Shown one piece after another: positions 1,054 through 62,494 of a DNA stretch of 64,000 nucleotides. Position 1 is the first letter of the stretch, and every line of letters begins with the position of its first letter. The stretch comes from Squalus acanthias. Taxonomy: Eukaryota. The DNA is taken from assembly GCA_030390025.1 (NCBI GenBank), contig CM059432.1:81098001-81162000 (forward strand), read 5' to 3'. The notes beneath the pieces are model-generated. The model was not told the DNA's origin. It did not search any database and was given only the letters and a program-made list of their open reading frames with translations. A program made the translations under genes and the position numbers.

Positions 1054-1311
1054 TCACAAGGGTAGTCACTTGGATGTTCTGTTGTGTTTAATTGTTAAGT
1101 GCCATCCTTTAGTCTATGTAATAAAATGAAGTGACGGCAAACTGTTGAAGTTCTGGGCTGTGTCATTTCGCTAATGAAAGTTCCACATTGAGGGCTCAGG
1201 GCGACTTGGATTTGTCATCATGGTGGTCAGAGTGATAGGAAGCCACAGGTTCTTGTCCATTGTCTATGGTGTGGTAAGAAGATGTGAGCCAAATGTGTTT
1301 GATTGCGCAAC

Positions 1312-2523
1312 CTAAGCAAATCTGTCCAAGATGAGTGCATCCCTTGCATCCCGGGCAGCAATTTGCTCGCGTCCTGCTGCTACTGGTTGATGCGCCTCGC
1401 ACAAGGTCTTCGTTCTCGCTCTTCTCCTCATCCTCATCCTCATCTGAGGAGGCTATGCGCTGAGCCACTTGTCCCTCCGGCAGCTGCAAGCCACGATGCT
1501 GTGCGAGGTTGTGAAGTGCACAGCAGACCACGACGATTCTGGAGACCCTGGCTGCTGAGTACTGCAGGGCTCCACCTGATCTATCAAGGCATCTGAATCG
1601 CATCTTCAGCAAGACGATGGTTTGCTCGATAATGGATCTGGTCAAAATGTGGCTGGAGTTGTAGCGCTCCTCAGCTTCGTTGGATGGGCTCCTCAACGGC
1701 GTCATTAGCCACGTCTTCAGGGGATAGCCCTTGTCTCCAAGTAGCCATCTGCAAAGTTGGTTTGGCGGTCTGAAGAGCGGAGGCACACTAGACTGGCGCA
1801 GGATGAAGGAGTCATGGCAACTGCCAGGGCACTCGGCGCAAACATGCAAAATTTCCTTCTTGTGGTTACACACCAGCTGCATGTTGAGGGAGTGGAAGCC
1901 CTTGCGGTTGACAAAAAGAGCTGGATTGTGATGGGGTGCCAGTCTACGACGCCCTGCACCCTTGGAAAGCCTGCCATATTTGCAAATCCAACTGCATGCA
2001 TGGTTACACTTGCTTGATCCTTGGAGAAGTTTATGTAATTGTGCGCCTTGGCAAAGAGGGCATCAGTAACCTGCGTGATGCAAGTGTGTGCGGCCGACTG
2101 GGAGATGCCGCTGATGTCTGCTGTTGATCCCTGGAATGAGCCTGAAGTAAAATAGTTGAGTGCGGTGGTGACTTTTACGGCCACTGGTAAGGAGTGTCCA
2201 CCCGCTCCTCTGGGCTCCAGGTATTTGTGCAGCATTGCGCAGATGTCACCCACTACCTCTTGCGAAAGTCTGAGCCTCCTTTGGCACTGCTGCTCAGTCA
2301 TGTTGAGGTAGCTCATCCTCTGTCTGTAAACCCTGTTTTGGGGGTATCTCCTGCGGCGACGTGCTTCCATGCGCTGGCGCCTTCTGGCCTGTGCAGCTTC
2401 AGGTTGGTGCTCCTGTTGTTGCTCCTGCTGTTGGTGCTCCTGTTGTTCCGGGTTCTGCTGCTGCCGCGGCTGGTCTTCGTCCGAATCTGAGGTCCAGGAG
2501 GAAAGGAAATAAATGGTTCCCAT
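1312..2523 (-). pseudogene. Harbinger (HARBI1-like) DDE transposase, apparently intronless, at least 2 frameshifts
   Basis: ORFs 1717-2523 and 1196-1882 give [64 protein letters not shown]-terminus [12 protein letters not shown] at 1312. Confidence 0.92.
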
Positions 2524-3116
2524 GCTGCTAGTATATACCTCAGTTGAGGAAGCGCTCAGTTAGTGTGGGGAGAGGGTTTTCCCAGGAGGTCACAGTGGAG
2601 ATGGATCTCAGCTTCACCACTTCCAAAATCAGTAGACCTGCAAAAAGTTCTCCAAGACCTGAAAAAGCAAAGTTCTGCCACCTGCAACTGATCCTTGTTG
2701 AAAACTCCGTTTTTATGGTGGAGCTGCAGCTGTTAGGAAGCCAGCCACTTGTCAACCCGACAAGATTAGCTGGCGTGTTTCAGGAGAAACGTGCAGCACA
2801 CTGGAAATGTGGCAAAATTTGAAAGGCCTCTCAAAATGGGATTATAGAGGTCATTAAGTAGCAGTTAAGTGCCTTAAGGGCCTATCCCGCCGCTTGGAGG
2901 CGGGACCAAAATGGAGTCTGCAAGCCCGCCTTTGGGAAAGTTGCAGGTCGACGGCGGGATCGGAACCCACCGTCATTTTTACAAATTTCCCACCTGACCT
3001 GCCTTCAAACCCGCCTCCTTGGGGCTGGCAAAATCCAGCCCTTAATGTTCATCTCATGCTTCTCAAGCAGCTAAATTGGCGTGTAAATGGCGAAACTGGT
3101 GAATATTTTGTTCAAT

Positions 3117-3235
3117 AGCAAAATACTGCGGATGCTGGAAATCTGAAATAACAACAGAAAATGCTGGAAACACTCAGCAGGCTAGGCAGCATCCGTGGAG
3201 AGAGAGACAGAGTTAACGTTTCAGGTCGATGACCC
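3117..3235 (-). mobile_element. Penelope-like terminal repeat fragment with 3' half of a hammerhead
   Basis: Minus strand GGTCATCGACCTGAAACGTTAAC...GATGCTGCC...CTGCTGAG...TCCAGCATTTTCTG resembles 56868-56990 of the Penelope copy. Confidence 0.6.
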
Positions 3236-3653
3236 AATATTTTGTTAATCCGTTTGCTGATTGTGAAAGCTTAAATGGCTTAAGAAAGAGGCCCATTTTA
3301 TAAACTAAGGGGGCAATTTTTGCTGAATACTTTAGCTGGTAAAGAGCCTCCGAGGTGGCCAAGATGGGGTCTTACGCTGCAACGCCGGATTAGCCCACGT
3401 TTAGCGCAAGACTCCATCTTTGTAAAGGAGTTGAAGCCAGCCCCAGAAACGGCCGCCTGGATACTCGTTAAATAACTGATTATGACTTAAAATGCCTGCT
3501 AGCGCTCATAAAAGAGGCTGCATGGCATTTTGCTGGCTAGTGCTTCAACTTGAGGTTGAATCTATCTGATTTAGCACAGTGGTAGTGCCCCACAACAGGG
3601 GGTGTCCTCAGTGTGACGACCGTACTTCATCTCCACAAGGACTGTGTACTTGA

Positions 3654-3968
3654 GGTACGGTGGCATAGTGGACTAATAACCCAGAGGCCTGGACTAATAA
3701 TCTGGAGGCATGAGTTCAAATCCCATCACTGCAGCTGGGGAATTTAAATTCAGTTAATTAAATAAATCTGGAATAAAAAGATATATCAGTAATGGTGACT
3801 ATGAAACTACTGGATTGTTGTAAAAACCCATCTGGTTCACTAATGTCCTTTAGGGAAGAAAATCTGCCATCCTTACCTGGTCTGGCCTATATGTGACTCC
3901 TTTCTTTTTTCTTTCTTATATGTGACTCCAGACCCACAGCAATGTGGTTGACACTTAACTGCCCTCTG
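3654..3968 (+). mobile_element. tRNA-derived Pol III head plus Deu-domain body (SacSINE1/DeuSINE-like module) forming the 5' end of the following LINE
   Basis: A box TGGCATAGTGG 3661-3671, B box GTTCAAATC 3714-3722, then Deu-like core GGTCTGGCCTATATGTGACTCCAGACCCACAGCAATGTGGTTGAC. Confidence 0.8.
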
Positions 3969-6524
3969 GTACTCAGTTGTACCAATCCGCGACAGAAAAC
4001 AATAATAAGAATAAAACTGGATAGACAACCGACAGCGACCTCGGCTTCGGACACGGCAAAGGAACACCCAGCTCAATCGACCCTGCAAAGTCCACCTCAC
4101 TAACATCTGGGGACTTGTGCCAAAATTGGGAGAGCTGTCCCCCAGACTTGTCAAGCAACAGCCTGACATAGTCATACTCACAGAATCATACCTTTCAGCC
4201 AATGTCCCAGACTCCTCCATCAACACCGGCAGGACAGACCCACCAGAGGAGGTGGCACAGTGGTATACAGTCAGGAGGGAGTGGCCCTGGGATTTCTCAA
4301 CATTGATTCCAGACCCCATGAAGTCTTAAGGCTTCAGGTCAAGCACGGGCAAGGAAACCTCCTCCTGATTACAACCTACTGCCCTCCCTCAGCTGAAGAA
4401 TCAGTACTCCTCCATGTTGAACATCACTTGGAAGAAGCACTGAGAGTAGCAAGGGCACCGAATGTACTCTGGGTGGGGGACTTCAATGTCTATCACCAAG
4501 AGTGGCTCAGTAGCATCACTATTGGCCGAGTCCTGAAGGACATAACTGCCAGTCTGGGCCTGCAGCAGGTGGTGAGAGAACCTAACACGAAGGAAAAATC
4601 TACTTGACCTCATCCTCACCAACCTACCTGTCGCAGATGCATCTGTCCAAGACAGTATTGGTAGCAGTGACCACCGCACAGTCCTTGTGGAGGCGAAGTC
4701 CCGTCTTCACATTGAAGACGCCCTCCATCGTGTGTGGCACAACCACTGTGCTAAATGGGATAGATTCAGAACAGATCTAGCAGCTCAAAACTGGGCATCC
4801 ATGAGGCGCTGTGGGCCATCAGCAGCAGCAGAATTGTACTGCACCACAATCTGTAACCTCATGGCCCGGCATATCGCTCACTCTACCATTACTATCAAGC
4901 CAGTGGACCAACCAGTGTGGAAGAGCATGCCAGGAGCAGCACCAGGCGTACCTAAAAATGAGGTGCCAACCTGGGGATGATGCAACACAGGACTACATGC
5001 ATGCTAAATAGCAGAAGCAGCATGCTATAGACAGGGCTAAGCGATTCCACAACCAATGGATCAGATCAAAGCTCTACAGTCCTGACACATCCAGTCATGA
5101 ATGGTGGTGGACAATTAAACAACTAACGGGAGGAGGAGGCTCCAGGAATATCCCCATCCTCAGTGACGATGGAGCCCAGCATGCGAGTGCAAAAGACAAG
5201 GCTGAAGCATTTGTAATCATCTTCAACCAGAAGTGCTGAGTCAATGATCCATATTGGCCTCCTCCTGAGGTCCCCACCATCACAGAAGCCAGTCTTCAAC
5301 CAATTCAATTCTCTCCATGTGATATCAAGAAATGCTGAGTGCACTGGATGCAGCAAAGGCTATGGGCCCCAACAACATCTCGGCTATCGTGCTGAAGACT
5401 TGTGCTCCAGAACTAGCCGCGTGTCTAGCCAAGCTGTTCCAGTACAGCTACAACACTGGCATCTACCCGACAATGTGGAAAACTGCCCAGGTATGTCTTG
5501 TCAACGAGAAGCAGGACAAATCCAATTCGGCCAATTACCGCCCCATCAGTCGACTCTCAATCATCAGCAAAGTGATGGAAGGTGTCGTCGACAGTGCTAT
5601 CAAGTGTCACTTACTCACCAATAACCTGCTCATCGATGCTCAGTTTGGGTTCTGCCAGGACCACTCAGCTCCAGATCTCATTACAGCCTTGGTTCAAAAT
5701 TCCAGAGGTGAGGAATGAGTGACTGCTCTTGGCATCAAGGCAGCATTTGACTGAGTGTGGCATCAAGGAACCCTATTAAAATTGAAGTCAATGGGAATCG
5801 GGGAAAACTCGTCACTGGCTGAAGTCATACCTAGCACAAAGGAATTTGGCTGAGGTTGTTGGAGGCCAATCATCACAGGCCCAGGACATCACTGCAGGAG
5901 TTCCTCATGGCAATTTCCTAGGCCTTCCCTCCATCATAAGGTCAGAAGTGGGGATGTTGACTGATGATTGCACAGTGTTCAGTTCCATTCACAACTCCTC
6001 AAATAATGAAGCAGTCCATGCCCACATGCAGCAAGACCTCGACAACATTCAGGCTTGGGCTGCTAAGTGGCAAGTAACATTCGCGCCACACAAGTGCTAG
6101 GTAATTACTATCTCCAACAAGGGAGAGTCTAACCACCGCCCCTTGGCATTCAATGGTATTACCATTGCCGAATCCCCCACCATCAACATCCTGGGGGGTC
6201 ACCATTGACAGAAACTTAACTGGACCAGCCATATAAATACTGTGGCTGCAAGAGCAGGTCAGATGCTGGGTATTCTGCGGCGAGTGTCTCACCTCCTGAC
6301 TCCCCAAAGCCTTTCCACCATCTACAAAGCACAAGTCAGAATACTCTCCACTTACCTGGATGAGTGCAGCTCCAACAACACTCAAGAAGCTCGACACCAT
6401 CCAGGACAAAGCAGCCCGCTTGATTGGCACCCCATCCACCACCTTAAACATTCACTCCCTCCACCACCGGCGCATCGTGGCTGCAGTGTGTACCATCTAC
6501 AAGATGCACTGCAGCAACTCGCCA

Positions 6525-7474
6525 GTATTTATTAATGACTTAGATGATGGCATAGAAAGTCATATATCCAAATTTGCCAATGACACAAAGATAGGTGGCA
6601 TTGTAGTCAGTGTAAATGAAAGCATAAAATTACAAAGGGGTATCGACAGATAAAGTGAATGGGCAAAACTGTGGCAAATGGATTTCAATGTAGGCAAATG
6701 CGAGGTCATCCACTTTGGACCTGAAAAGGATAGAACAGGGTAGTTCCTAAATGGTGAAACGCTAAAAACAGTGGAGGTCCAAAGATCATTAAAATGTCAT
6801 GAACAGATACAGAAAGTAATTAAAAAGGCAAATAGAATGCTGGCCTTTATATCTAGAGGACTAGAATACAAGGGGGTAGAAGTTATGCTGCAGCTGTACA
6901 AAGCCCTGGTTAGACCACACCTGGAGTACTGTGAGCAGTTCTGGGCACCACACCTTAGGAAGGATATATTGGCCTTGGAGGGAGTGCAGCATAGATCTAC
7001 CAGAATGATACCCAGACTTCAAGGGTTAAGTTACAAGGATAGATTACACCAATTAGGCTTATATTCCCTAGAATTTAGAAGGTTAAGGGGTGATCTCATC
7101 GAAGTTTTCAAGATATTAAGGGGAACAAAAGGGTAGATAGAGAGAAACTATTTCCGCTGGTTGGGGATTCTAGGATTAGGGGGCATAGTCTACAAATAAA
7201 ACAAGCTAGACCTTTCAGGCGTGAAATTAGGAAACATTTCGACACACAAAGGGTGGTAGAAGTTTGGAACTCTCTTCCGCAAACGGCAATTGATGCTAGA
7301 TCAATTGTTAATTTTAAATCGGAGATTGATAGCTTTTTGTTAACTAAACTTATTAAGGGATATGGACCAAAGGCAGGTATATGGAGTTAGGTCGCAGATC
7401 AGCCATGATCTCATTGAATGGCAGAACAGGCTCGAGGGGCTGAATGGCCTACTCCTGTTCCTATGTTCCTATGT
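6525..7474 (+). mobile_element. 5'-truncated CR1 LINE nested in LINE copy 1
   Basis: INDLDDG..SKFANDTK, LVRPHLEYC, (ATGTTCCT)n tail; TSD TCGCCA at 6519-6524 and 7475-7480. Confidence 0.92.
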
Positions 7475-8099
7475 TCGCCAAGGCTTCTTCGATAGCACCT
7501 CCCAAACCTGCGACCTCTACCACCTAGAAGGACAAGGGCAACAGATGCATGGGAATAACATCACCTCCAAGTTTCCCTCCAAGTCACACACCATCCTGAC
7601 TTGGAAATATATCGCCATTCCTTGATCCTGGAACTTTGTCCCTGACAGCACTATGGGAGTAACTTCACCTTACGGATTGCAGCAGTTCAAGAAGGTGGCT
7701 CACCACCATCTTCTCAAGGGCAATTAGGGATGGGCAATAAATGCTGGCCTTGCCAGCGACGCCCACATCCCAGGAACGAATAAATAAAAAAGAACTAATG
7801 CGTTCTCATAACAGTGAGCAGCTGTTTGGGAGTAAACAGGACGTTGATGTCAATTTCAAGCTCTACTTTAAGGGATACTCACCATTCATGTTCATTGCTG
7901 TTGGAGCTGTGAAGAGGACCTCTGAAACACATCGGGAGACTTTCGGCGACACTTTGTCAAGACTTCGCTAACACTCGAGCAACAACTTTTATGGAAATTC
8001 TCTGAGGACTTCACCTAAAAAGAGTGAATGCTGTGCTACTCTACCTTATTGGACACCTGATAGGAGTCACCAGAAGAAAGGGAGCGCTTGGTCATGGGC

Positions 8100-14056: not shown

Positions 14057-14104
14057 ATGATCTACCCCCCACTCCCTGCCACATTCCAACCACAATCTCC
14101 CAAC

Positions 14105-15225
14105 CCCGACCTTCCATCCACGATCTCCCCTCGACCTTCCATCCACGGTCTCTCATCCGACCTTCCATCCACGATCTCCCCCCGACCTTCCATCCACGGT
14201 CTCTCATCCGACCTTCCATCCACGATCTCCCCCCGACCTTCCATCCACGGTCTCTCATCCGACCTTCCATCAACGATCTCTCCCCGACCTTCCATCCACG
14301 GTCTCTCATCCGACCTTCCATCCATGATCTGCCCTCCCCGACCTTCCATCCACGATCTCCCCCCGACCTTCCATCCACGGTCTTTCATCCGACCTTCCAT
14401 CAACGATCTCCCCCCGACCTTCCATCCATGGTCTCTCATCCGACCTTCCATCCATGATCTGCCCTCCCCGACCTTCCATCCACGATCTCCCCCCGACCTT
14501 CCATCCACGGTCTTTCATCCGACCTTCCATCCACGATCTTCCCCCCTGACCTTCCATCCACGGTCTCTCATCCGACCTTCCATCCACGGTCTCTCATCCG
14601 ACCTTCCATCCACGGTCTCTCATCCGACCTTCCATCCACGGTCTCTCATCCGACCTTCCATCCACGATCTCCCCCGACCTTCCATCCACGGTCTCTCATC
14701 CGACCTTCCATCCACGGTCTCTCATCCGACCTTCCATCCACGATCTCCCCCCGACCTTCCATCCACGGTCTCTCATCCGACCTTCCATCCACGATCTCCC
14801 CCCCGACCTTCCATCCACGGTCTCTCCCCGACCTTCCATCCACGGTCTCTCATCCGACCTTCCATCCACGGTCTCCCCACCCCAGACCTTCCATCCACGA
14901 TCTCCCCCCTCCGACCTTCCATCCATGATCACCCCCCTGACCTTCCATCCACGATCTCCCCTCGACTTTCCATCCATGATCTCCCCCCCGACCTTCCATC
15001 CACGATCTCTCCTCGACCTTCCATCCACGATCTCCCCCGACCTTCCATCCACGATCACCCCCCCGACCTTCCATCCACGATCACCCCCCCTGACCTTCCA
15101 TCCACGATCTCCCCCCCCCCGACCTTCCATCCACGATCTCCCCCCCCCCCCGACCTTCCATCCACGATCTCCCCACCCCTGACCTTCCATCCACGATCTC
15201 CCCCTCGACCTTCCATCCATGACAC
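14105..15225. repeat. C-rich minisatellite with interspersed ~24-27-bp variants
   Basis: Core CGACCTTCCATCCACG followed by either ATCTCCCC(n) or GTCTCTCATC, roughly 45 units. Confidence 0.95.
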
Positions 15226-15499
15226 CCTCCTCTCTGCTCCCCGGCTGTTGCACACCAGCCCAGGCTAGCCTGCCCAACAGCTAGTCAGCCTCTCAATCTG
15301 GATGGCTGCCAGGTGGGATATGGAGAAAATTAAATTAAATTAGGTCCTGCCGTTTAATTTGGCAGGACTTCCGTTTTACCCGCATTTCCAGTTTTCCCGG
15401 CTGCTCCGACCCCGCTCCTACCCCATCATCCGTAAATACTGGGGCCATTGTATCCACACTGAAAGATTCAGGACTGTGATTGTCACCAAGAAATAATTT

Positions 15500-17018: not shown

Positions 17019-18080
17019 TTAATTAAACTTACCCTCATATGTATCCTTACTCATGATAGAGCAGTCCACTGCTGTGTCAATACACATATCAATATATTGC
17101 TCGTTGATCAAAAGTTTTGTATGGAAGTCTTTCTCACGACTACTATCGTTGCCACTCGTGGCATAGATACTGTAGATGCTTAGTTCTTCAACATCAGGTG
17201 TGTTCACTTCAATATCGTGAACTCTTCCCTTTTGTTGTTGCTGCTTTGCATTGCCACTAGAATAGTTCTTACTTCCTGCTTTAGATCTAGCTCTGCAAGC
17301 TGTTGAAATATGGCCTGGCTTCTGGCAGTGAAAACACTTCGCATTTCTGTATTGGCAGGACTGTGGTGAGTGATTTCCATTGCAGCGACAACAATTCACT
17401 GAACTGCTCTCGCCGACATGCTTTTGACTCGGTCTCTTAGCTTTAGGTTTGGCGGTGGCTTTGTGACTGTAGACCTCAGCTGCACTAGTCACTTGCGTTG
17501 AACGGAGCTCCCTAGCATTCTTAGATGCCATCTCCATAGATAGGGCAATTTTGCATGCTATTTCAAACGTTAGGTTCAGAGTGTTCAGTAACTTGGACTG
17601 TCTGTGCTCATCCACCAGTCCACACACAAACTTGTCTCGCAATGCACAATCCAAAAATGTCCCTAAGTTGCAATGCAAAGACAGGTTCTTAAGAGCTGCA
17701 ATGTACTCACTGATGGTTTCACTTTGTTTTTGGTTTCTCGTATCAAACTTATAGCTCTCTGCTATTTCTAACGGCTTTGGGTCCAAATGGTCCTCGAGTT
17801 TCTCAACAATGTCTTCAACCGACGCATCCTTCACTTTCCCTGGCACGAGTAGGTTTGTCAGCATTCCATAGACATCTGGCCCGATCTCCGTCAGAAAAAT
17901 TACTTTTTTACGTTCACAAATTACTTTATTTTGAGCTTGAACATTCTCATCTGCACCTTCGGTCTCAATAATGTTATTGGCCCTAAAAAAAATCTCCATC
18001 TGCTCAATGTAAGAACTGAAAGGTTCGCGAGCTCGGTCATACATGCCGAGGCTTCCGATGAATCCCTTAGGCGCAGCCAT
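17019..18080 (-). CDS. Gypsy Gag with CCHC zinc knuckles and start of aspartic protease (premature stop)
   Basis: Open 353-aa ORF: LRDKFVCGL, CCRCNGNHSPQSC, CFHCQKPGHISTAC, MCIDTAVDCSIM. Confidence 0.85.
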   Translation of the reverse strand: MAAPKGFIGSLGMYDRAREPFSSYIEQMEIFFRANNIIETEGADENVQAQNKVICERKKVIFLTEIGPDVYGMLTNLLVPGKVKDASVEDIVEKLEDHLDPKPLEIAESYKFDTRNQKQSETISEYIAALKNLSLHCNLGTFLDCALRDKFVCGLVDEHRQSKLLNTLNLTFEIACKIALSMEMASKNARELRSTQVTSAAEVYSHKATAKPKAKRPSQKHVGESSSVNCCRCNGNHSPQSCQYRNAKCFHCQKPGHISTACRARSKAGSKNYSSGNAKQQQQKGRVHDIEVNTPDVEELSIYSIYATSGNDSSREKDFHTKLLINEQYIDMCIDTAVDCSIMSKDTYEGKFN

Positions 18081-18318
18081 GATTGTCCCGATCCCGTCGA
18101 ACAGTGACTCAGCACGCTACCTGTGTACATGTGAGAATCAACGCCACTGTTGCTGTGTATACATACACACGAAGGTGAAGCACAGATGATTCTGCATCAG
18201 CATTAACGGTAAAACATCGCAAAAATTCAGTTCAGGTGTCACAAATTCACCTTAAACTTGTCCACTCAAAGGTTGAACACTGTGTCCTTCCATGATCCCT
18301 AAAAATGTCTTTTTTGGG

Positions 18319-20292: not shown

Positions 20293-23200
20293 TCCTTTTA
20301 TATTCGTTCCTGGGATGTGGGCGTAGCTGGCAAGGCCAGCATTTATTGCCCATCCCTAATTGCCCTTGAGTTGGTGGTGGTGAGCCGCCTTCTTGAACCG
20401 CTGCAGTCCGTGTGGTGATGTTAGGGAGGGAGTTCCAGGATTTTGATCCAGCGATGATGAAGGAATGGCGATATAGTTCCAAGTCAGGATGGTGTGTAAC
20501 TTGGAGTGGAACTTGCAGGTGATGTTGTTCCCATGCTCCTGCTGCCCTTGTCCTTCTAGGTGGAAGAAGTCGCGGGTTTGGGAGGTGCTGCCGAAGAAGC
20601 CTTGGCAAGTTGCTGCAGTGCATCTTGTAGATGGTACACACTGCAGCCATGGTGCGCTGGTGGTGCAAGGAGTGAATGTTTAAGGTGGTGGATGGGGCAC
20701 CTATCAAGCGGGATGCTTTGTCCTGGATGGTGTCGAGCTTCTTGAGTGTTGTTGGAGCTTCACTCATCCAGGCAAGTGGAGAGTATTCCATCACACTGCT
20801 GACTTGTGCCTTGTAGATGGTGGAAAGGCTTTGGGGAGTCAGGAGGTGAGACGCTCACTGCAGAATAGCCAGCCTCTGACCTGCTCTTGTAGCCACAGTA
20901 TTTATGTGGCTGGTCCAATTAAATTTCTGGTCAATAGTGACCCCCAGGATGTTGATGATGGGGGATTCAGTGATGGTCATGCCGTTGAATGTCAAGTGGC
21001 GGTGATTAGACTCTCTCTTTTTGGAGATAGTCATTGCCTGGCACTTGTGTGGCACGAATGTTTCTTGCCACTTATCAGCCCGAGGCTGAATGTCGTTCAG
21101 GTCTTGCTGCATTCGGGCATTGACTGCTTCATTATCTGAGGAGTTGTGAATGGAACTGAACACTGTGCAATCATCAGTGAACCTCCCCATTTCTGACCTT
21201 ATAGAGTTATAGAGTTATACAGCACAGAAAGAGGCCCTTCGGCCCATCGTGTCCGCGCCGGCCATCAAGCCCTGTCTATTCTAATCCCATTTTCCAGCAC
21301 TTGGTCCGTAGCCTTGTATGCTATGGCGTTTCAAGTGCTCATCTAAATGCTTCTTGAATGTTGTGAGGGTTCCTGCCTCTACCACTCTTTCAGGCAGTGA
21401 GTTCCAGATTCTAACCACCCTCTGGGTGAAAAAGTTTTTCCTCAAATCCCCTCCAAACCTCCTGCCCCTTACCTTGAAACTATGCCCCCTTGTTATTGAC
21501 CCCTCTACTAAGGGGAAAAGTTCCTATCTATGCCCCTCATAATTTTGTACACCTTAATCAGGTCCCCCCTCAGCCTCTCTGCTCTAAGGAAACAACCCCA
21601 GCCTGTCCAGTCTCTCTTCATAGCTGAAGCGCTGCAGCCCAGGTAACATCCTGGTGAATCTCCTCTGCACCCTCTCCAATGCAATCACATCCTTCCTATA
21701 GTGTGGCGACCAGAACTGCACACAGTATTCCAGCTGTGGCCTAACTAGCGTTTTGTACAGCTCCATCATAACCTCCCTGCTCTTATATTCTATGCCTCGG
21801 CTAATGAAGGCAAGTATCCCATATGCCTTTTTAACCACCTTATCTACCTGTCCTGCTGCCTTCAGGGATCTATGTACATGCATGCCAAGGTCCCTCTGAT
21901 CCTCTGTCCTTCCTAGGGTCCTACCATTCATTGTGTATTCCCTTGCCTTGTTAGTCCTCCCAAAATGCATCACCTCACACTTTTCAGGGTTAAATTCCAT
22001 TTTCCACTGTTCTGCCCATCTGACCAACCCGTCTATATCGTTCTGTAGCCTGAGGCTTCCCTCCTCGCTATTTACCACTCCACCAATTTTCGTGTCATCT
22101 GCAAACTTACTGATCATACCCCCTACATTCATATCTAAATCATTAATGTACACTACAAACAGCAAAGGACCCAGCACCGATCCCTGCAGTACACCACTGG
22201 ACACAGGCTTCCAGTCACAAAAAGAACCTTCGACCATCACCCTCTGCCTCCTGCCACTAAGCCAATTTTGGATCCAATGTGCCAAATTGCCCTGGATCCC
22301 ATGGGCTCTTACCGTCTTGACCAGTCTCCCATGTCGGACTTTGTCAAAAGCCTTACTGAAGTCCATGTAGACTACATCAACTGCACTACCCTCATCCACA
22401 CACCTAGTCACCCCCTCGAAAAATGCAATCAAATTGGTTAGACATGATCTCCCCCTGACAAAGCCATGCTGACTATCCTTGAATAATCCTTGCCTCTCCA
22501 AGTGGAGATTAATTCTGTCCCTCAGAATTTTTTCCAATAATTTCCCTACCACTGATGTTAGGCTCACTGGCCTGTAATTCCCTGGTTTATCCCTACTACC
22601 CTTCTTGAATAATGGTACTACGTTAGCTGTTCTCCAGTCCTCTGGCACCTCCCCTGAGGTTCTGAAAATTTGTGTCAGAGCCCCTGCAATCTCCTCCCTT
22701 GCCTCACACAGCAGCCTGGGATACATCTCATCTGGGCCTGGGGATTTATCCACTTTTAAGCCCGCTAAAACCGCTAGTACCTCCTCCCTCTCAATACTAA
22801 TTTGTTGAAGTATATCACAATCCCCCTGCCTGATTTCTATGCCTACATCGTCCTTCTCCATAGTGAACACAGATGCAAAATATTCATTTAAAACCTCACC
22901 TACATCTTCTGGCTCTACACACAGATTGCCACTTTGGTCCCTAATGGGCCCTACTCTTTCCCTGGTTATCCTCTTGCCCTTAGTATACTTATAAAACACC
23001 TGATGGAGGGAAGGTCATTGATGAAGCAGCTGCAGATGGTTGGGCCTAGGACACTGCCCTGAGGAACTCCTGCAGCGATGTCCTGGGGCTGGGATGATTG
23101 GCCTCCAACAACCACAACCATCTTCCTTTGTGCTAGGTATGACTCCAGCCAGTGGAGAGTTTTCCCCCTGATTCCCATTGACTTCAATTTTACTGGAGCT

Positions 23201-25022
23201 CCTTGATGTCGCACTCGGTGAAATGCTGCCTTGATGTCAAGGGCAGTCACTCTCACCTCACCTCTGGAATTCAGCTCTTTCGTCCATGTTTGGACCAAGG
23301 TTGTAATGAGGTCTGGAGCCGAGTGGTTCTGGCGGCACCCAAACTGAGCATCAGTGAGCAGGTTATTGGTGAGTAAGTGCCGCTTGATAGCACTGTCAAC
23401 AACACCTTCCGTCACTTTTCTGATGATTGAGAGTAGACTGAGGGGGTGGTAATTGGCCGATTGGATTTGTCCTGCTTTTTGTGGACAGGACATACCTGGG
23501 CAGTTTTCCACATTGTCGGGTAGATGCCAGTGTTGTAGCTGTACTGGAACAGCTTGGCTAGAGGCGTGGCTTGTTCTGGAGCACAAGTCTTCAGCATGAC
23601 AGCCGGGATGTTGTCAGGGCCCAAAGCCTTTGCTGTATCCAGTGCGCTCAGCGTTTCTTGATATCACGTGGAGTGAATCGAATTGGCTGAAGACTGGCTT
23701 CTGTGATGGTGGGGACCTCAGGAGGAGGCCGATATGGATCATTCACTCAGCACTTCTGGTTGAAGATGATTGCAAGTGCTTCAGCCTTGTCTTTTGCACT
23801 CACGTGCTGGGCTCCGTCATCACTGAGGATGGGGATATTCCTGGAGCCACCTCCTCCTGTTAGTTGTTTACTTGTCCACCACCATTCATGACTGGATGTG
23901 TTAGGACTGCAGAGCTTTGATCTGATCCATTGGTTGTGGAATCACTTAGCTCTGTCTATAGCATGCTGCTTCAGCTGTTTAGCATGCATGTAGTCCTGTG
24001 TTGCAACTTCCCCAGGTTGGCACCTCTTTTTTTTTTTAAGTACGCCTGGTGCAGCTTCTGGCATGCTCTTCTGCTCTCCTCATTGAACTGGGGTTGGTCC
24101 CCTGGCTTGATGGTAATGGTAGAGTGAGGGATATGCCGGGCCATGAGTTTACAGATTGTGGTGGAATATAATTCTGCTGCTGCTGGTGGCCCACAGCACC
24201 TCATGGTGTGCAGTTTTGAGCTGCTAGATCTGTTCTGAATCTATCCCATTTAGCACGGTGGTAGTGCCACACAACACGATGGAGGGTGTCCTCAGTGTGA
24301 AGATGAGATTTCATCTCCACACGGACTGTATAGTGGTAACTGCTACCAATGCTGTCATGGACAGATGCATCTGCGACAGGTAGATTGGTGAGGACGAGGT
24401 CAGGTAGGTTTTTCTCTTGTGTTGGTTCTCTCACCACCTACCACAGCCCTAATCTGGCAGCTATGTCCTTCAGGACTCGGCCAGCTCAGTCAGTAGTGTT
24501 GCTACCGAGCCACTCTTAGTGATGGACATTGAAGTCCCCCACCCAGAGTACATTCTGTGCCCTTGCTACCATCAGTGCTTCTTCCAAGTGGTGTTCAACA
24601 TGGAGGAGTACTGATTCATCAGCTGAGAGAGGGCAGTAGGTGGTAATCAGAAGGAGGTTTCTTTGCCCATTCTTGACCTGAAGCCATGAGACTTCATGGG
24701 GTCTGGAGTCAATGTTGAGGACTCCCAGGGCCACTCCCTCCCGACTGTATATCACTGTGCCACCACCCCTGGTGGGTTTGTCCTGCCGGTGGGACAGGAA
24801 ATACGCAGGGATGGTGATGGAGGAATCTGGGACATTGGCTGAAAGGTATCATTCTATGAGTATGACTATGTCAGGCTGTTGCTTGACTAGTCTGTGGGAC
24901 AGCTCTCCCAATTTTGGCACAAGTCCCCTGATGTTAGTGAGGATGACTTTGCAGGGTCAACTGGGCTGGGTGTGCCTTTGTCATTTCTGAAGCCAGTGCC
25001 GAGGTCGATGCTGGGTGGTCAG
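20293..25022 (-). mobile_element. SINE-headed LINE family, copy 2 (5'-truncated just upstream of EN), nested in L2
   Basis: Colinear with 4015-7790 including the 3' tail and the ~90-bp linker upstream of [24 protein letters not shown]. Confidence 0.9.
21201..23000 (-). mobile_element. Relatively young CR1 (471-aa open RT fragment) nested in LINE copy 2
   Basis: KSPGPD, NYRPVSLTS, YMDFSKAFDKV, KFADDTK; (ATAACTCT)n tail at 21201-21218; interrupts ...CTGACCTT|TGATGGAGGG. Confidence 0.95.
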
Positions 25023-32886: not shown

Positions 32887-33510
32887 ATTGCAGTTGATGT
32901 GTATATGGACTGTGCAGTTGATGTTATGTATATGGACTGTGCAGTTGATGTTATGTATATGGACTGTGCAGTTGATGTGTATATGGACTGTGCAGTTGAT
33001 GTTATGTATATGGACTGTGCAGTTGATGTGTATATGGACTGTGCAGTTGATGTGTATATGGACTGTGCAGTTGATGTTATGTATATGGACTGTGCAGTTG
33101 ATGTGTATATGGACTGTGCAGTTGATGTGTATATGGACTGTGCAGTTGATGTGTATATGGACTGTGCAGTTGATGTTATGTATATGGACTGTGCAGTTGA
33201 TGTGTATATGGACTGTGCAGTTGATGTGTATATGGACTGTGCAGTTGATGTGTATATGGACTGTGCAGTTGATGTTATGTATGTCGACTGTGCAGTTGAT
33301 GTGTATATGGACTGTGCAGTTGATGTGTATATGGACTGTGCAGTTGATGTGTATATGGACTGTGCAGTTGATGTGTATATGGACTGTGCAGTTGATGTTA
33401 TGTATGTCGACTGTGCAGTTGATGTGTATATGGACTGTGCAGTTGATGTGTATATGGACTGTGCAGTAGATGTGTATATGGACTGTGCAGTTGATGTTAT
33501 GTATATGGAC
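32887..33510 (+). repeat. Minisatellite of ~25 units (24 and 27 bp) derived from CR1 RT coding sequence
   Basis: TGTGCAGTTGATGT(TAT)GTATATGGAC, translating as CAVDV(M)YMD and running in frame into FQNVFDKVPH. Confidence 0.95.
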
Positions 33511-34078
33511 TTTCAAAATGTATTTGATAAAGTACCACATTCTAGGCTTGTTAGCAAAATTGAAGCCCATGGGATAAAACGGGCAGTAGCAGCATGGATA
33601 CAAAATTGGCTGAGGGATAGAAAACAGAGAGGTGTGGTGAATGGCTGTTTTTCGGACTGGAGGGAGGTATACAGAGGCGTTCCCCGGGTTCAGTACGAGG
33701 GCAACTGCTGTTTTTGATACACATTAATGACTTGGACTTGGGGGTACAGGGCACAATTTCAAAATTTGCAAATGACACGAAACTTGGAAGTGTAGTAAAT
33801 AGTGAGGAAGATAGTAATAGACTTCAAGAAGACATAGACAGGCTGGTGGAATGGGTGGACACATGGCAGATGAAATTCAACGCAGAGAAGTGAGAGGTGA
33901 TACATTTTGGTAGGAAGAATGAGGAGAGACCTTACACACTAAATGGTACAATTTAAAGGGGGTGCAAGAACAGAGAGACCTGGGGGTGCTTGTGAACAAA
34001 TCTTTGAAGGTGGCAGGACCGGTTAACAAAGCAGTTAATAAAGCATATGGGATCCTGGGCTTTATAAATAGAGGCATA

Positions 34079-35426: not shown

Positions 35427-35636
35427 AATTTTGATAGGAGAATGAAAAGGTTGTTAAAATGAATTATAACTTGTTTTTAGCTTCGTCAGGTTGGGTCATC
35501 CCCTTCAAGTCCAGCCCATATTGATAATATAAATGAATATGGTAAAATGGATTAAATGAGCGGGCGGAACTGTGGCAGATGGAGTTCAGTGTGGGGAAGT
35601 GAGTGGTCATCCACTTTGGACCTAAGAAAGATAGAT

Positions 35637-37126
35637 TGTGTCGAGCTTCTTGAGTGTTGTTGGAGCTGCACTCATCCAAGCAAGTGGAGATTATTCCATC
35701 ACACTCCTTACTTGTGCCTTGTAGATGGTGTAAAGACTTTGGGGAGTCAGCAGGTGAGATACTTACCGCAGAATACCCAGCCTCTGACCTGCTCTTGTAG
35801 CACAGTATTTATGTGGCTGGTCCAGTTAAGTTTCTGGTCAATGGTGACCCCCCAGGATGTTGATGGTGGGGGATTCGGTGATGGTAATGCCATTGAATGT
35901 CAAGGGGCAGTGGTTAGACTCTCGCTTGTTGGAGATAGTCATTGCCTGGCACTTGTGTGGTGCGAATGTTACTTGCCACTTATCAGCCCAAGCCTGAGTG
36001 TTGTCCGGGTCTTGCTGCATGCGGGCATGGACTGCTTCATTATCTGAGGAGTTGCAAATGGAACCGAATACTGTGCAATCATCAGCGAACATCCCCCCTT
36101 TTGACCTTGTGATGGAGGGAAGGTCATTGATGAAGCAGCTGAAGATGGTTGGACCTAGGATATAGCCCTGAAGAACTCCTGCAGCGATGTCCTGGGGCTG
36201 AGATGATTGGCCTCCAACAACCACAACCATGTTTATGGGGTATGGCAACATAGTGGTTATGTTACTGGACTAGTAATCCAGAGGCCTGGACTAATGATCC
36301 GGAGACATGAGTTCAAATCCTACCATGGCAGCTGGGGAATTTAAATTCAAATAATTAAATAAATCTGGAAGAAAAAGATAGTATCTGTGATTGTGGGGAC
36401 CTCAGGAGAAGGATGCGATTGATCATCCACTAGGCACTTCTGGCTGAAGATGGTTGCAAACGCTTCAGCCTTGTCTTTTGCACTCAAATGCTGGGATCCG
36501 CCATCATTGAGGATGGGGATGTTCATGGAGCCTACTCTTCCCGTTAGTATTTTAATTGTCCACCATTCACTACTGGATGTGGCAGGCCTGTAGAGCTTTG
36601 ATCTGATCCGTTGGTTGTGGGATCACTTAGCTCTGTCTATAGCATGCTGTTTCTGCTGTTTACCATGCATGTAATCCTGTGTTGCAGCTTCCCCAGGTTG
36701 GCACCTCATTTTTAGGTACGCCTGGTGCTGCTCCTGGCATGCTCTTCTACACTTCTCATTGAACCAGGGTTGGTCCCCTGGCTTGATGGTAATGGTATAG
36801 TGAGCAATATGCCGGGCCATGAGGTTACAGATTGTGGTGGAATACAATGCTGCTGCTGATGGCCCACAGCGCCTCATGGATGCCCAGTTTTGAGCTGCTA
36901 GATCTGTTCTGAATCTATCCCATTTAGCACGGTGGTAGTGCCACACAACACGATGGAGGGTGTCCTCAGTGTGAAGATGGGACTTCGTCTCCACAAGGAC
37001 TGTGTGGTGGTCACTCCTACCAATACTGTCATGGACAGATGCATCTGCGACAGGTAGATTGGTGAAGACGAGGTCAAGTAGGTTTTTCCCTCGTGTTGGT
37101 TCTCTCATCACCTGCTGCAGGCCCAG
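35637..37126 (-). mobile_element. SINE-headed LINE family, copy 3 (two pieces separated by an oppositely oriented tRNA head)
   Basis: GMFADDCTVF; HTEDTLHRVVWHYHRAKWDRF; colinear with copies 1 and 2. Confidence 0.88.
36238..36390 (+). mobile_element. tRNA-derived Pol III head fragment of the same family
   Basis: CATAGTGG..., B box GTTCAAATC 36311-36319, GCAGCTGGGGAATTTAAATTCA as at 3731. Confidence 0.85.
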
Positions 37127-37819: not shown

Positions 37820-39720
37820 TGCGGGCCAAGAATGGAGAGGTACTCATCAAGGGAAGATCTCCTTAACCGAGACTCTGTTTTCGACGTGAGTGTCCTCAAC
37901 TCCATCCCGCAGCATGCTACCCGCCACCATCTCAGCACAACCCCAGCCCGGCATGAGGTTGAAAAGGCCATCCGACAACTGAAGAACAGCAAGGCCTCAG
38001 GAGCAGATGGAATCCCTGCAGAGGCACTAAAGCATAGTGGAGAAGCACTACTGGCGCGAATTCATGAACTAATTTATTTTATCTGGAAGGAGGAGAGCAT
38101 GCCAGGGGATCTCAGAGATGCCATAATTGTGACCATCTTCAAGAAAGATGACAAGTCCGATTGCGGTAATTACAGAGGGGTTTCCCTGCTGTCTGCCACA
38201 GGGAAAGTCATCGCAAGAATCCTCCTCAATCGCCTTGTCCCAGGCCGAAGAGCTCCTCCCAGAGTCGCAATGCGGATTCCGCCCACTAATGGGCACAATG
38301 AACATGATCTTCACCGCGCGTCAATTACAAGAGAAATGCAGGGAACAGCACCAACCGCTGTACATGGCCGCCTTTGATCTCACAAAGGCCTTTGACACTG
38401 TCAACCGTGAGGGATTATGGAGTGTCCTCCTCAAATTCGGCTGCCCTCAAAAGTTTGTCACCATCCTCCGCCTGCTTCACGACGACATGCAAGCCGTGAT
38501 CCTGACCAACGGTTCCACCACAGACCCAATTTACGTACGGACCGGGGTCAGGCAAGGCTGTGTCATCGCACCAACGCTCTTCTCGATCTTCCTTGCTGCA
38601 ATGCTTCATCTCACCCTCAGTAAGCTGGAGTAAGCTAATTTACAGAACAAACGGGAAACTGTTCAACCTCTGTCTCCTCCAGTCCAGATCCAAGGTCGTC
38701 CCATCCTCTGTCATCGAATTACAGTAAGCAGATGACGCTTGCGTCTGCGCTCATTCGGAGGTCGAACTCCAAACCATCGTCAACACCTTCACTGAAGCGT
38801 ACGAGAGCATGGGCCTTACACCAAACATCTGTAAGACAAAGGTCCTCTACCAACCTGCCCCTGCCACACAGTATTGCCCCCCTATTATCAAAATCCACGA
38901 CAAGGCCTTGGACAATGTGGACCACTTTCCATACCTCGGGAGCCTACTGTCAACAAGGGCAGACGTCGATGACGAAGTCCAACACCGCCTTCAGTGTGCC
39001 AGTGCAGCCTTCGGTCGCCTGAGGAAGAGAGTGTTTGAAGTCCAGGACCTCAAACCCGGCACTAAGCTCATGGTCTACAGAGCAGCAGTGATACCCGCCC
39101 TGCTGTATGCCTCAGAGACATGGACCATGTACAGCAGGCACCTCAAAGCACTGGAGAGGTACCACCAACGCTGCCTCCGCAAGATCCTGCAAATCCATTG
39201 GCAGGATAGGCGCACCAACGTCAGTGTTCTCGCTCAGGCCAACATGCCCAGCACCGAAGCTTTGACCATGCTCGATCAGCTCCGATGGACGGGTCACATC
39301 GTTCGCATGCCCGATACAAGACTCCCAAAACAAGCGTTCTACTCGGAGCTCCGACATTGCAAGAGAGCCCCAGGTGGGCAGAGGAAACGCGTCAAGGACA
39401 CCCTCAAAGCCTCCTTGAAAAAGTGCAACATCCCCACTGACACCTGGGAATCCCTGGCCCAAGACCGCACAAAGTGGAGGAGAAGCATCCGGGAAGGCGC
39501 CGAACACCTCGAGTCTCTTCGCCGGGAGCAAGCAGAAGCCAAGCGCAAGGAGCGCACGTCAACCCAAGCACCTCACCCACCTGCCCCTTCAACCACCGTC
39601 TGCCCCACCTGTGACAGAGACTGTAGGTCCCGCATTGGACTCATCAGTCACCTGAGAACTCATTTTTAATGTGGAAGCAAGTCATACTCGGTTCCGAGGG
39701 ACTGCCTAAGAAGGAGAAGA
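37820..39720 (+). mobile_element. RTE-clade (BovB-like) LINE, 5'-truncated, with 22-bp TSD
   Basis: KASGADGIPAE, LPESQCGFR, FDLTKAFDTV, GVRQGCVIAPTLF, C-terminal CPTCDRDCRSRIGLISHLRTH; AAG-type tail; TSD GCCGAGTTTTGGATGACCTCAC at 37798-37819 and 39721-39742. Confidence 0.93.
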
Positions 39721-58797: not shown

Positions 58798-59900
58798 TCT
58801 TTAATATATTGTAGATTATAATATCAAATCAAATATTACATAAAAATAAGGACAGACACATGACCTTAAAACAGGGAGTTGAGTTTTTGGTTTTAACTAA
58901 GTGATGACAATTGTTGATGTCTATCCTATTTCTGTTCCTGATAAATAATAATATCTAGGACTGTAGTTCCTTGCAGCAATATAAAGATTGAACTCCCTTC
59001 TCCTGACACATCTCAAAAGGCTTTTTAAATGAATTGTTTTGAAGTAAGTCCCTTAACTCCTCGGTTATACTGTAGTAGAAATTCATACCCCTGTTATGAT
59101 GGGGGAGGAGGGGGTAAGCTCATTCTGCAAACATGGTAATGCTAGTAACTGCCATGGGATTCCCAAATCTTGTTTTAAATAGCAAAAGTGAGGGCCACTC
59201 ACTCAGTCCCCTCTGTGTGTAGACCTACACTAGTGTGAGTCAGTGCCTTCAGAGGAGGGGTCGAAGCAAAGAATATTGAAGGAAAGAAATAATTGCATCC
59301 AAGAAAAGAGATTATTTGGTCATGTTCTTTGTATGTATCAGCAAACTTTCCTTCCTTAAACAATACAGCAGTTTAGCCGCATTTGTAAAGCTATTTTAGC
59401 AAAGTTGCAAGCTAAGGTAGAAGCTGCTTATAAAACTCAGAGTTTCTCTCTTCCAGATGATTTACCAGATTGAAGTTTCTGAGAGCCTTCGTGTATGTTG
59501 AACATCGATACTTTATGCTCACAGTCACCTCTTTGGGATCCCAGTCAGTGTGTCAACATGACTCGGGCCCTTTTATCTATCCAGCTGCAAGTCCTCTCTT
59601 TCCTACTGCTTCCTGAGTTCCCACTCGCCCATGAGCTTCCCTACGCCTCCATAGTTCACTGTTAATGGGCTGGACTGGAGCCCCTATCTCATCAACATCA
59701 CTAATGTAGTGATTCCAGCTGCTGCATACTGTAGCCGGGAGTTCTCATGAAAAGAGGACTTCCTGCCCACAGTATACAGTGGCAGGTATCACTACCATTA
59801 GCCAGGCTGAGGAAAGTGGGGCACTGATTTTACCCATTAGCAATGGACTTAGGTGGAAGCAAGGAAGGGTGGGAATGGATGACAATAAGGAGTTGGAAAT

Positions 59901-60135
59901 GGATGGCAATGAAGGGACAATGGATAACATTAAATAGGGAGTTGATGGCAATGAAGGAGGAAATGGATAACATTAAATAGGGAGTTGATGGCAATGAAGG
60001 AACAATGGATAACATTAAATAGGGAGTTGATGGCAATGAAGGGACAATGGATAACATTAAATAGGGAGTTGATGGCAATGAAGGGACAATGGATAACATT
60101 AAATAGGGAGTTGATGGCAATGAAGGGACAATGGA
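59901..60135. repeat. 42-bp tandem repeat, ~5.5 copies
   Basis: GATGGCAATGAAGGGACAATGGATAACATTAAATAGGGAGTT. Confidence 0.93.
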
Positions 60136-62494
60136 TGGAACTAGAGGGGAAAAAGAATGGCACTGAATATGGGCAATGGATGGGAATGAAGAAAGTAGAT
60201 GGTAATGAAAGGAGAAATTAAGGGAAGAGGGAAGCAACACTTTCAGGTGGGGAAGGAAGGAGAATGCTAGATTAAAAGGGGAGTGGGTAGATAGTGTTGG
60301 TATTAATGGAAGGGGGAAAGAGTGGCAGCATAATCTCGGGGGTGGGGGGTGCGGTGGTAGTAATAGTGTTGACATGAACTGAAGGGTGGAAAGGAGCATC
60401 AGCACGAACTGGGGGGAGGTGGAAATGAGTGCCGTCTTGAACAGAGAGTAGGCAGGAAGAGTGCCAGCTTGAATTAGGAGGGCATGGAAGTTGAGTACCA
60501 GTCTGAAATGGGAGGGTGGAAGAGGAGAGGGAATGGGGAGTTGGATGAGGTACAGTGCCTCAGTGAACTGGGTTTGGAGAGGGTAGAACATCTCTTTGAA
60601 CTGGGCGTAGGTGAGACTTTGTGCGAGTATGACTCGATAACTTTAGGGTGCGCAATGGTTTAGTTGGTCTGTTGAAAATCTAAATGCATCTTTGTTTTTC
60701 TTTTTTTAGATTCGAAATCTATTCATTGTGAAATAAAAAACATGCTTATAATGAATCAGAATGCATTATTTTTAACATAAAAAAATCAAAATTTTCCAGC
60801 AAAATGTTTTGCAGACCCACCTAGAAATACATCACAAACTTGTGCCTTCAGCATTTGTTGTCCCACTTTAGGCTTTCATGTTCTTCTGCTGTTTTTTCAA
60901 TACAAGTAAAGGAATAATATGCCTATCTACAACTTAATGACAGAGCTTGTGTAACTACTTGTTTTTACACGTCTAGGCCTTAAAATCAGGGCCATTCTTG
61001 TGGTTATAAATACAAGTTGTTGTTGTTGTTATTATTTCAGCTTCTTTGAAGTTGTTGGTCATCTGTTAGTTTTCTAGCTTGGCATGTATGAACTTCTTTG
61101 ATCTCCTGTGTAGTGATGCGCGCATAGAACCATCCTGCAGCTGTTTCTTACACTGGTGAGGGGCAGAAATGTTTATTTTCTGGGGCCATGTCTTTTTTTT
61201 CTGGGGTACAGTTTTTCCTAATGAGCAGAAAAATCTAGACCTAATACCTCCAAAAACACACCATCAACTGTGTACTACTGCACACTCTGCCGGCGGTTAT
61301 GTGTATCAGTAGCAATGGCTGCAGATTATCTGTCAGGCCCCACTGAAATTAATGGCGCTGCTCTGGGGTGCAAGCTCCATAGGACAGCAGTCACTGCAGC
61401 AGGCATAGAGACAAGAAATTCCTCGGCAGAAATGATAGACTCAGTGGGCAAAAGCAAAGTTATTGTGATAAGGGCAATAGATATATTGTACTGCACTGAA
61501 GTAATTTTGTGGGGCGCCACTGACGGTGTTGAGCTTCGCTACTGACGAGCATAGATAGTAAAATGGGGGCATGGTGTTTCATCCTTATCTCAAACCATGC
61601 TCCTGGTCACAGCAGAGCCTCGCAAAATTACCCCATATATATTGTTCAGATAGAGATGGGTAAGGACCACTTTAAACAGAAAGTACTTCCCTAGGTTTTA
61701 GTTCCCGTTTTTAAAAACAACACCAATTCTGACAGTTGCTCCCAGCTATTCTACATACTAAGACAGCAGAATATAAGATGGTTTTCCAGACTTATCTCCA
61801 ATCCATTCTCTTTTCTTTTCTCATTTTTTAAATTCAGGCTTAATATAGACAAATTTAAGAATAACTGTGTTTCAGCTGATTTTTTAAAAATGCCAATGAC
61901 TGGATCTATTGCTATTTAGTTTCCCTTGAAGAATACATCCCCTGCAGCCATATATGAACACCATTCCAAGGTTGTCTGAAAATTTCAGCAAATCATATTC
62001 TAGTCCAAGGATATAATTTTTAAAAAATATTTGCAAAATGTGTTTCAAATAAAGATAAACAGTTTGGATTTGGGAACCAAGTACTCTGATCTGGCTGCTT
62101 TGATCTAAAAATAGTATTGCTTCCTATTTTGAAAGCCATAAGATAAGCTCAAAGCATGCAACTCAGAGGACTTGCTCCTTGTAAAGGGCACCTTGTATTA
62201 CAATTGTTTAGCTTTGCTGCAAAAAATAGAAGAAATCTACAGCAGAAAATTGCACGGTTATACTGGATAATAAGAGCTATAAGCAGCCTGCTTGTTTGAG
62301 TATGTAACCAAATTCTCCACAATAATTTTCAATACTTTTCTCAGATGCACACTTTAGTGCACCTCTCATAATTTTTGTCAGTGTTTGTTACTCCTCCTTC
62401 CCCCTTATTGGGATGCTTTGTTAAAGGTGGTATGTAAGTTGCTGTATTTAATAGAATTGAAATGTACCACAAAATGGAGATATAATTTCTTCAG

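Follow-up and report, generated by a model that had tools for sequence, protein, structure and literature searches.

The window, by which we mean the whole 64,000-nt stretch of Squalus acanthias DNA analysed here, holds decayed copies of an abundant mobile element, 3.3 kb long and protein-coding, with a tRNA-type promoter at its start (Table 1). The initial annotation had described three copies of a SINE-headed LINE; the head stands in line in copy 1 only, since copies 2 and 3 are 5′-truncated. We take the body of copy 1 to be Deu-type and the fragment inserted into its frame to be CR1-type; this body is missing a hairpin that other family members have ahead of the frame (deleted near 3969). 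A further, inverted fragment of the same frame lies immediately 5′ of the copy 1 head, at 3557–3648. Elsewhere in the window, two broken, overlapping frames at 1196–2559 (minus strand) resemble what we assume to be a Harbinger/PIF-type transposase, a Gag-like frame with a zinc knuckle at 17019–18116 (minus strand) presumably belongs to a Gypsy-type element, and tandem repeat arrays occupy 14059–15232, 32889–33511 (within a CR1 fragment) and 59859–60216.

Table 1 Features of the element copies and of neighbouring LINEs in the window (T4+, run of four or more T)
Feature	Position	Strand	Remarks
Copy 1, tRNA-derived head	3653..3724	+	From sequence; A box 3661-3671, B box 3712-3723
Copy 1, non-coding body	3725..3982	+	Common to the genome's short SINE-like derivatives
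Secondary insert in copy 1, T-rich, 16 nt	3901..3916		13-nt duplication 3888-3900 / 3917-3929; gives copy 1 its T6
Copy 1, decayed endonuclease-RT frame, 5′ part	3983..6524	+	Without T4+, TCTTT or TATTT
CR1-type fragment (label assumed) inserted in copy 1	6525..7475	+	Three T4+ runs
Copy 1, frame 3′ end, tail and A-rich end	7476..7791	+	Stop 7725-7727; AATAAA 7736-7741
Copy 2, 3′ part and tail	20297..21202	-	
CR1-type insert splitting copy 2	21203-23000		Eleven T4+ runs
Copy 2, 5′ part	23001..25020	-	Headless, 5′-truncated; no sense T4+
Copy 3, internal fragment	35634..37126	-	Both ends truncated; inverted head fragment 36263-36395 within
Young RTE family	37814-39730		Copies (L335-L354) ~98% identical to majority

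We searched the animal's own genome for further copies. From 3,249 first-look candidates, all 40 scored genome matches span the junction between body and open reading frame, and a family majority built from 39 non-window copies, to which copies are 94% identical, comprises ~3.3 kb: a leader of 328 nt with head and body, then a single 973-residue open frame, then the tail. Genomic copies carry the Pfam domains Exo_endo_phos (PF03372/PF14529) and RVT_1 (PF00078) and have the A-rich ends of a poly(A) tail; the single frame holds both AP endonuclease and RT, and there is no ORF1. Thirty more well-preserved copies (the best 30 of 49 matches) belong to the same star-like family at 94–96% identity. 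These 30 came from a distant-relative query meant to reveal a second, divergent headed subfamily that could serve as an independent sample; every one of the loci examined belonged to the same family. Because all copies form one star-like family, they represent one evolutionary sample, and the initial warning that shared ancestry makes the copies non-independent is borne out among the well-preserved ones.

Zenon elements, reported from sharks, rays, coelacanth and hagfish, lack ORF1 and end in a poly(A) tail (Stuart et al. 2026, PMC13343379), and their single endonuclease-RT frame, A-tail and length of ~3.3 kb agree with the element described here. The published shark and ray rows match our family majority over the first 400 nt compared by eye, with no sequence difference seen, and both its structure and this sequence match identify the element as the elasmobranch Zenon LINE (CR1 group). 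Over the same first 400 nt, again by eye, all seven elasmobranch Zenon rows (five species) in the supplement of that paper start with the head and contain no TTTT, and the three hagfish and coelacanth rows, with 5′ ends of possibly limited reliability, lack a head of this kind and contain TTTT. The terms 'tRNA', 'polymerase III' and 'start codon' have 0 occurrences in the main text of PMC13343379, which therefore describes neither the head nor the lack of an AUG nor the avoidance of T-runs. In contigs of four other organisms, too, the body is followed directly by linker or frame sequence. The nearest named proteins are lepidopteran and lancelet, and invertebrate, hagfish and coelacanth Zenon or CR1-group LINEs share the single frame at 33–41% protein identity. 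Four CR1-group relatives (L130, L210, L211 and L213) resemble the element in their poly(A) tail; the relatives of this group differ from it in that they mostly start with Met, carry T4 in every frame and have no upstream pair of A and B boxes. The hybrid of head and LINE is thus real because the junction recurs and the published consensuses carry the head; the T count, which the initial annotation had offered as support independent of the junction, does not prove it.

In the family majority, the A box lies at position 41 and the B box at 106, and both match the A- and B-box consensus. The 5′ boundary of the family is sharp: across 37 heads, column agreement is 0.30–0.46 at positions −20 to −9 and 0.59–0.95 from −8, that is, 8 nt before the A box, where a tRNA would begin. 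Both boxes are visible in the published rows, the ray-row B box being one letter short (PMC13343379). Searches for a recognizable tRNA gave a weak Rfam match in a single copy (L100; 15.4 bits, E 3.1, under the gathering score), and ARAGORN called no tRNA gene in the copy 1 head. Around full-length copies, we found no convincing target-site duplications. Assembled contigs from sequencing runs that are presumably RNA cover the element and reveal neither start nor strand nor polymerase.

The initial annotation reported that sense-strand TTTT is absent from all three copies in the window, and our scan agrees, with no T4+ in copy 1 (3,172 nt once inserts are removed), in copy 2 (2,926 nt) or in copy 3 (1,331 nt). 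The T6 of copy 1 (3905–3910) sits in the 16-nt insert, which was rightly called secondary given its flanking duplication and its absence from the family majority, and the one T5 on the LINE sense strand of copy 3 falls within its inverted head fragment. Positions 3930–6524 (2,595 nt, 20.9% T) contain no T4+, eight TTT runs and 11 runs of A4+, and the longest T4-free stretch on the plus strand of the window is 3911–7104. The probability of finding no T4 in 3930–6524 is 0.015 with base shuffling versus 0.16 with dinucleotide correction. The majority of the 39 copies is likewise free of sense T4, with seven TTT and 15 A4+; base shuffling predicts 4.1 T4 (P 0.015), and both synonymous-codon shuffling (P 0.105–0.109) and a dinucleotide model (P 0.152) predict ~1.9. 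The 30 best copies, which descend from a single ancestor and so do not count as independent samples, contain 12 T4+ in 91 kb (three at the tail) versus 415 A4+, and 22 of them have no internal T4+. After correction for composition, the absence of TTTT by itself is not significant (P 0.11–0.15), and the depletion that the initial annotation had proposed is retained in the broader set of T-runs and terminators (P 0.004–0.025).

This wider signal is better than that of TTTT alone, with motif sets (T3+, terminator set) picked after the T4 test and within one family. TTT is the most depleted trinucleotide of the majority (7 versus 25.9 expected), and the frame holds five T3+ runs versus 11.7 expected (P 0.004), a depletion confined to T, with none seen for runs of A, C or G. 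Over the whole element, T3+ under the dinucleotide model is not significant (7 versus 12.2, P 0.08). Minimal Pol III terminators are given as T4, TCT3 and TAT3 in PMC8466645; the element contains none of them versus 2.9 expected (P 0.025), the antisense strand 18. Its terminator-free stretch of 2,919 nt compares with a maximum of 1,309 nt in an RTE family of the same genome and 1,037 nt in 137 related LINE frames, and its ratio of observed to expected T3+ is the lowest of 138 such frames (0.30 versus 1.11 ± 0.21). All seven TTT of the majority stand outside the weak-terminator context, lacking T at −2 and +2. Low Phe content (1.8%) was considered as a protein-level sign and rejected, as GC-rich relatives equal it (1.5–2.3%).

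For comparison with related LINEs, we fetched 160 loci from metagenome and genome contigs and kept the 137 in which an open frame with RT reached 450 residues or more, dropping 23. None of the 137 frames, most of them AT-rich, has zero T4, and none has an A and B box pair upstream of the frame (87 with at least 300 nt upstream). Among T-poor relatives, frame T4 counts are 1 (L211), 2 (L136), 3 (L134) and 5 (L186); L211, the second-closest relative by score, has 20% T and a Met start on a contig with only 33 nt upstream. A T4 P value as low as that of the family (P ≤ 0.11) occurs in 18 of the 137 controls and P ≤ 0.025 on the same terminator set in five, and one control (L156) has a T3+ z score below that of the family under codon shuffling. 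Against five T-matched controls pooled, P is 0.074 for T4 = 0, 0.013 for the terminator set and 0.009 for T3+. In two CR1-group frames on contaminant contigs, T4 is strongly depleted, with one versus 8.5 expected in L274 (3001–5046) and four versus 11.6 in L252; both have many TCTTT/TATTT and lack their 5′ end, no head being seen in either, and their T4 depletion is unexplained and possibly due to chance.

Within the same genome, the frame majorities of CR1 and L2 contain 16 and 4 T4+, in line with the initial statement that neighbouring LINEs contain TTTT. For the RTE family that statement is weak: the TTTT at 38077 is missing from the family majority (20 copies; first 600 nt from three; 17% T), which has no T4 in its first 3,000 nt and its sole in-frame T4+ at the last codon (39663). 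The RTE leader has an ATG start and no A or B box, and the family contains three motifs of the terminator set. A headless LINE that is T4-free for 3.0 kb shows that such a strand occurs also without a head, making the RTE family a useful negative control. The comparison with head-less relatives that the initial annotation had asked for is thus only partly in its favour: none of the 137 reaches zero, and the T-poor ones come near (L211 with one T4, RTE with one at the last codon). Because a T-poor LINE of the same genome lacks T-runs almost as fully, their absence lends modest support only to Pol III transcription, favouring it roughly 7–14-fold for T4 and roughly a few tens-fold for the wider set, which was picked later; this falls short of independent proof.

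How an uncapped RNA would be translated, a question raised by the initial annotation, is a real one here: the family has no usable AUG ahead of the endonuclease. The first Met of the frame is residue 287, past the endonuclease start, as compared with a Met before the endonuclease in 39 of the 52 relatives whose endonuclease start is visible. The majority leader holds eight ATGs, none of which opens the frame in most copies; an in-frame leader ATG is followed by TAG in 36 of 59 copies and by TAA in 44 of 59, and is open in three. We consider an AUG start via read-through of ATG-GCC-TAG unlikely, given the second stop in 44 of 59 copies and variation of the ATG in one other organism. Where the frame opens, a hairpin with a 7-nt anticodon-like loop (L034:756–791) is followed 17 nt downstream by a complementary in-frame triplet. 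Among the matches listed, contigs of four other organisms show no difference in hairpin and triplet, the letters between and after them varying, and in the published rows the frame is kept, by eye, from the triplet onward (PMC13343379). The triplet is changed in four genome copies that have the change in common, and in the one copy analysed, folding of the body does not surpass that of shuffled sequence (z +1.57), with no IRES fold seen; hairpin and triplet are for these reasons only a lead to a possible translation element.

At the 3′ end, T3+ precedes the A-tail in 18 of 63 parsed and 13 of 76 unparsed tails, versus none at two internal TAAAAA sites (0 of 56 and 0 of 54). We rejected such T-runs as a trace of Pol III termination, as background A7+ runs of the genome are preceded by T3+ at the same rate (36 of 113), and by the same comparison found no terminator of the element's own between AATAAA and A-tail. 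T elongation after insertion is described in PMC8466645. Thirty loci from a head query (of 41 matches) comprise 13 that run into the frame, 12 that pass from body to tail, four that are one duplicated, rearranged copy and one that is inverted. The 12 SINE-sized loci (within L071–L099) have breakpoints from majority 331–380 to 3205–3250, and some retain the first letters of the frame. Since body and tail are joined at varied breakpoints, the genome's SINEs look like independent deletion products of the LINE. The rearranged head-plus-tail copy (L072, L077, L078 and L086) has identical flanks on three small contigs, which suggests a segmental or tandem duplication. We take the SINE2 relatives of the element to be the DeuSINE group. 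Like tRNA-derived SINEs (SINE2) and the T+ SINEs B2, Dip and Ves as described in PMC8466645, the element has 5′ A and B boxes, a non-coding body, a LINE-type tail and an AATAAA ~40 nt ahead of the A-tail. Unlike SINEs, it encodes its own 973-residue frame, and it is without a fixed 3′ terminator; it is SINE-like at its 5′ end but not a SINE.

We interpret the element as an autonomous Zenon LINE with an A-box/B-box head that is likely transcribed by Pol III over its full length, a reading argued mainly from the head and to which we give a probability of about 0.55. TFIIIC would bind the A and B boxes of the head, Pol III would read all 3.3 kb and, as for Alu, would stop at the first T-run past the A-tail. 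A master copy that gained an internal terminator would yield RNA without the 3′ recognition tail and leave no offspring. Full-length Pol III transcription would explain a T4-free sense strand with few weaker T-rich stops. The most speculative step is translation, in which the uncapped RNA may be read from a non-AUG start right behind the conserved hairpin at the body's end.

The strongest alternative, which we regard as rather doubtful and still a serious contender, is that composition and chance left a T-poor (20%), TT-poor strand with ~two T4 expected free of them, that the head was captured from, or homogenised with, a partner SINE, and that transcription is by Pol II. The P values for T4 are compatible with chance, as is the RTE majority, and the nulls are well calibrated, since the controls reach P ≤ 0.11 and P ≤ 0.025 at the frequencies given above; one family is moreover one sample. 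Against chance stand the rank of TTT among the depleted trinucleotides, a terminator-free stretch more than twice as long as any in the compared LINEs, and a both-box head that is kept in five shark and ray species with its 5′ end at tRNA +1. Pol II transcription in particular fits the leader badly, as its eight ATGs would burden cap scanning. Quite improbable is avoidance of U-runs for other reasons, namely U-rich downstream elements that under Pol II would activate three early AATAAA (majority 153, 164 and 389), slippage of ribosome or RT, or sensing of the RNA by the host: depletion of TTT, which is no Pol III terminator, would suit it, but same-genome CR1 and L2 and the 137 relatives do not, as a group, avoid such runs, A and C runs, which are slippage-prone too, are not depleted, and all seven TTT avoid the weak-terminator context.

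Beyond full-length Pol III transcription, we tentatively propose, at somewhat less than even odds, that shark and ray Zenon is an autonomous 3.3-kb coding element which took over a tRNA promoter for Pol III and lost its terminators, and whose cap-free, AUG-free translation begins at a structure closing the body, its SINEs being deletion products; the conserved SINE body would then be a translation element of the LINE.

LINEs are regarded as Pol II transcripts (or Pol I co-transcripts), and Pol III products as short and non-coding. R2 elements set a precedent for uncapped RNA translated from a non-AUG start, and differ from the element in being Pol I co-transcripts released by a ribozyme. The dicistrovirus IGR IRES is another such precedent (PMC3517527). 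Autonomous LINEs are assumed to be Pol II-transcribed in a passage of PMC5786205, where RTE-1_DAn and elements related to it are said to hold a tRNA-like sequence, like the element; compared by description, they differ from it in belonging to the RTE clade, and that passage does not give the position or function of the tRNA-like part. In the literature searched (mainly open literature, Repbase Reports being outside its scope), we found no account of Pol III transcription of Zenon or another coding LINE and no natural 3-kb coding Pol III transcript. A useful calibration is that 3 kb without TTTT shifts the likelihood ratio only ~tenfold when the LINE is T-poor; the case has to be built on the head, on cross-species data and on the wider terminator set. 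If the reading is true, neither the rule that LINEs belong to Pol II nor the rule that Pol III products are short and non-coding would survive a natural coding Pol III transcript of 3.3 kb, and Zenon would allow direct tests of cap-free, non-AUG translation and of the role of a conserved SINE body.
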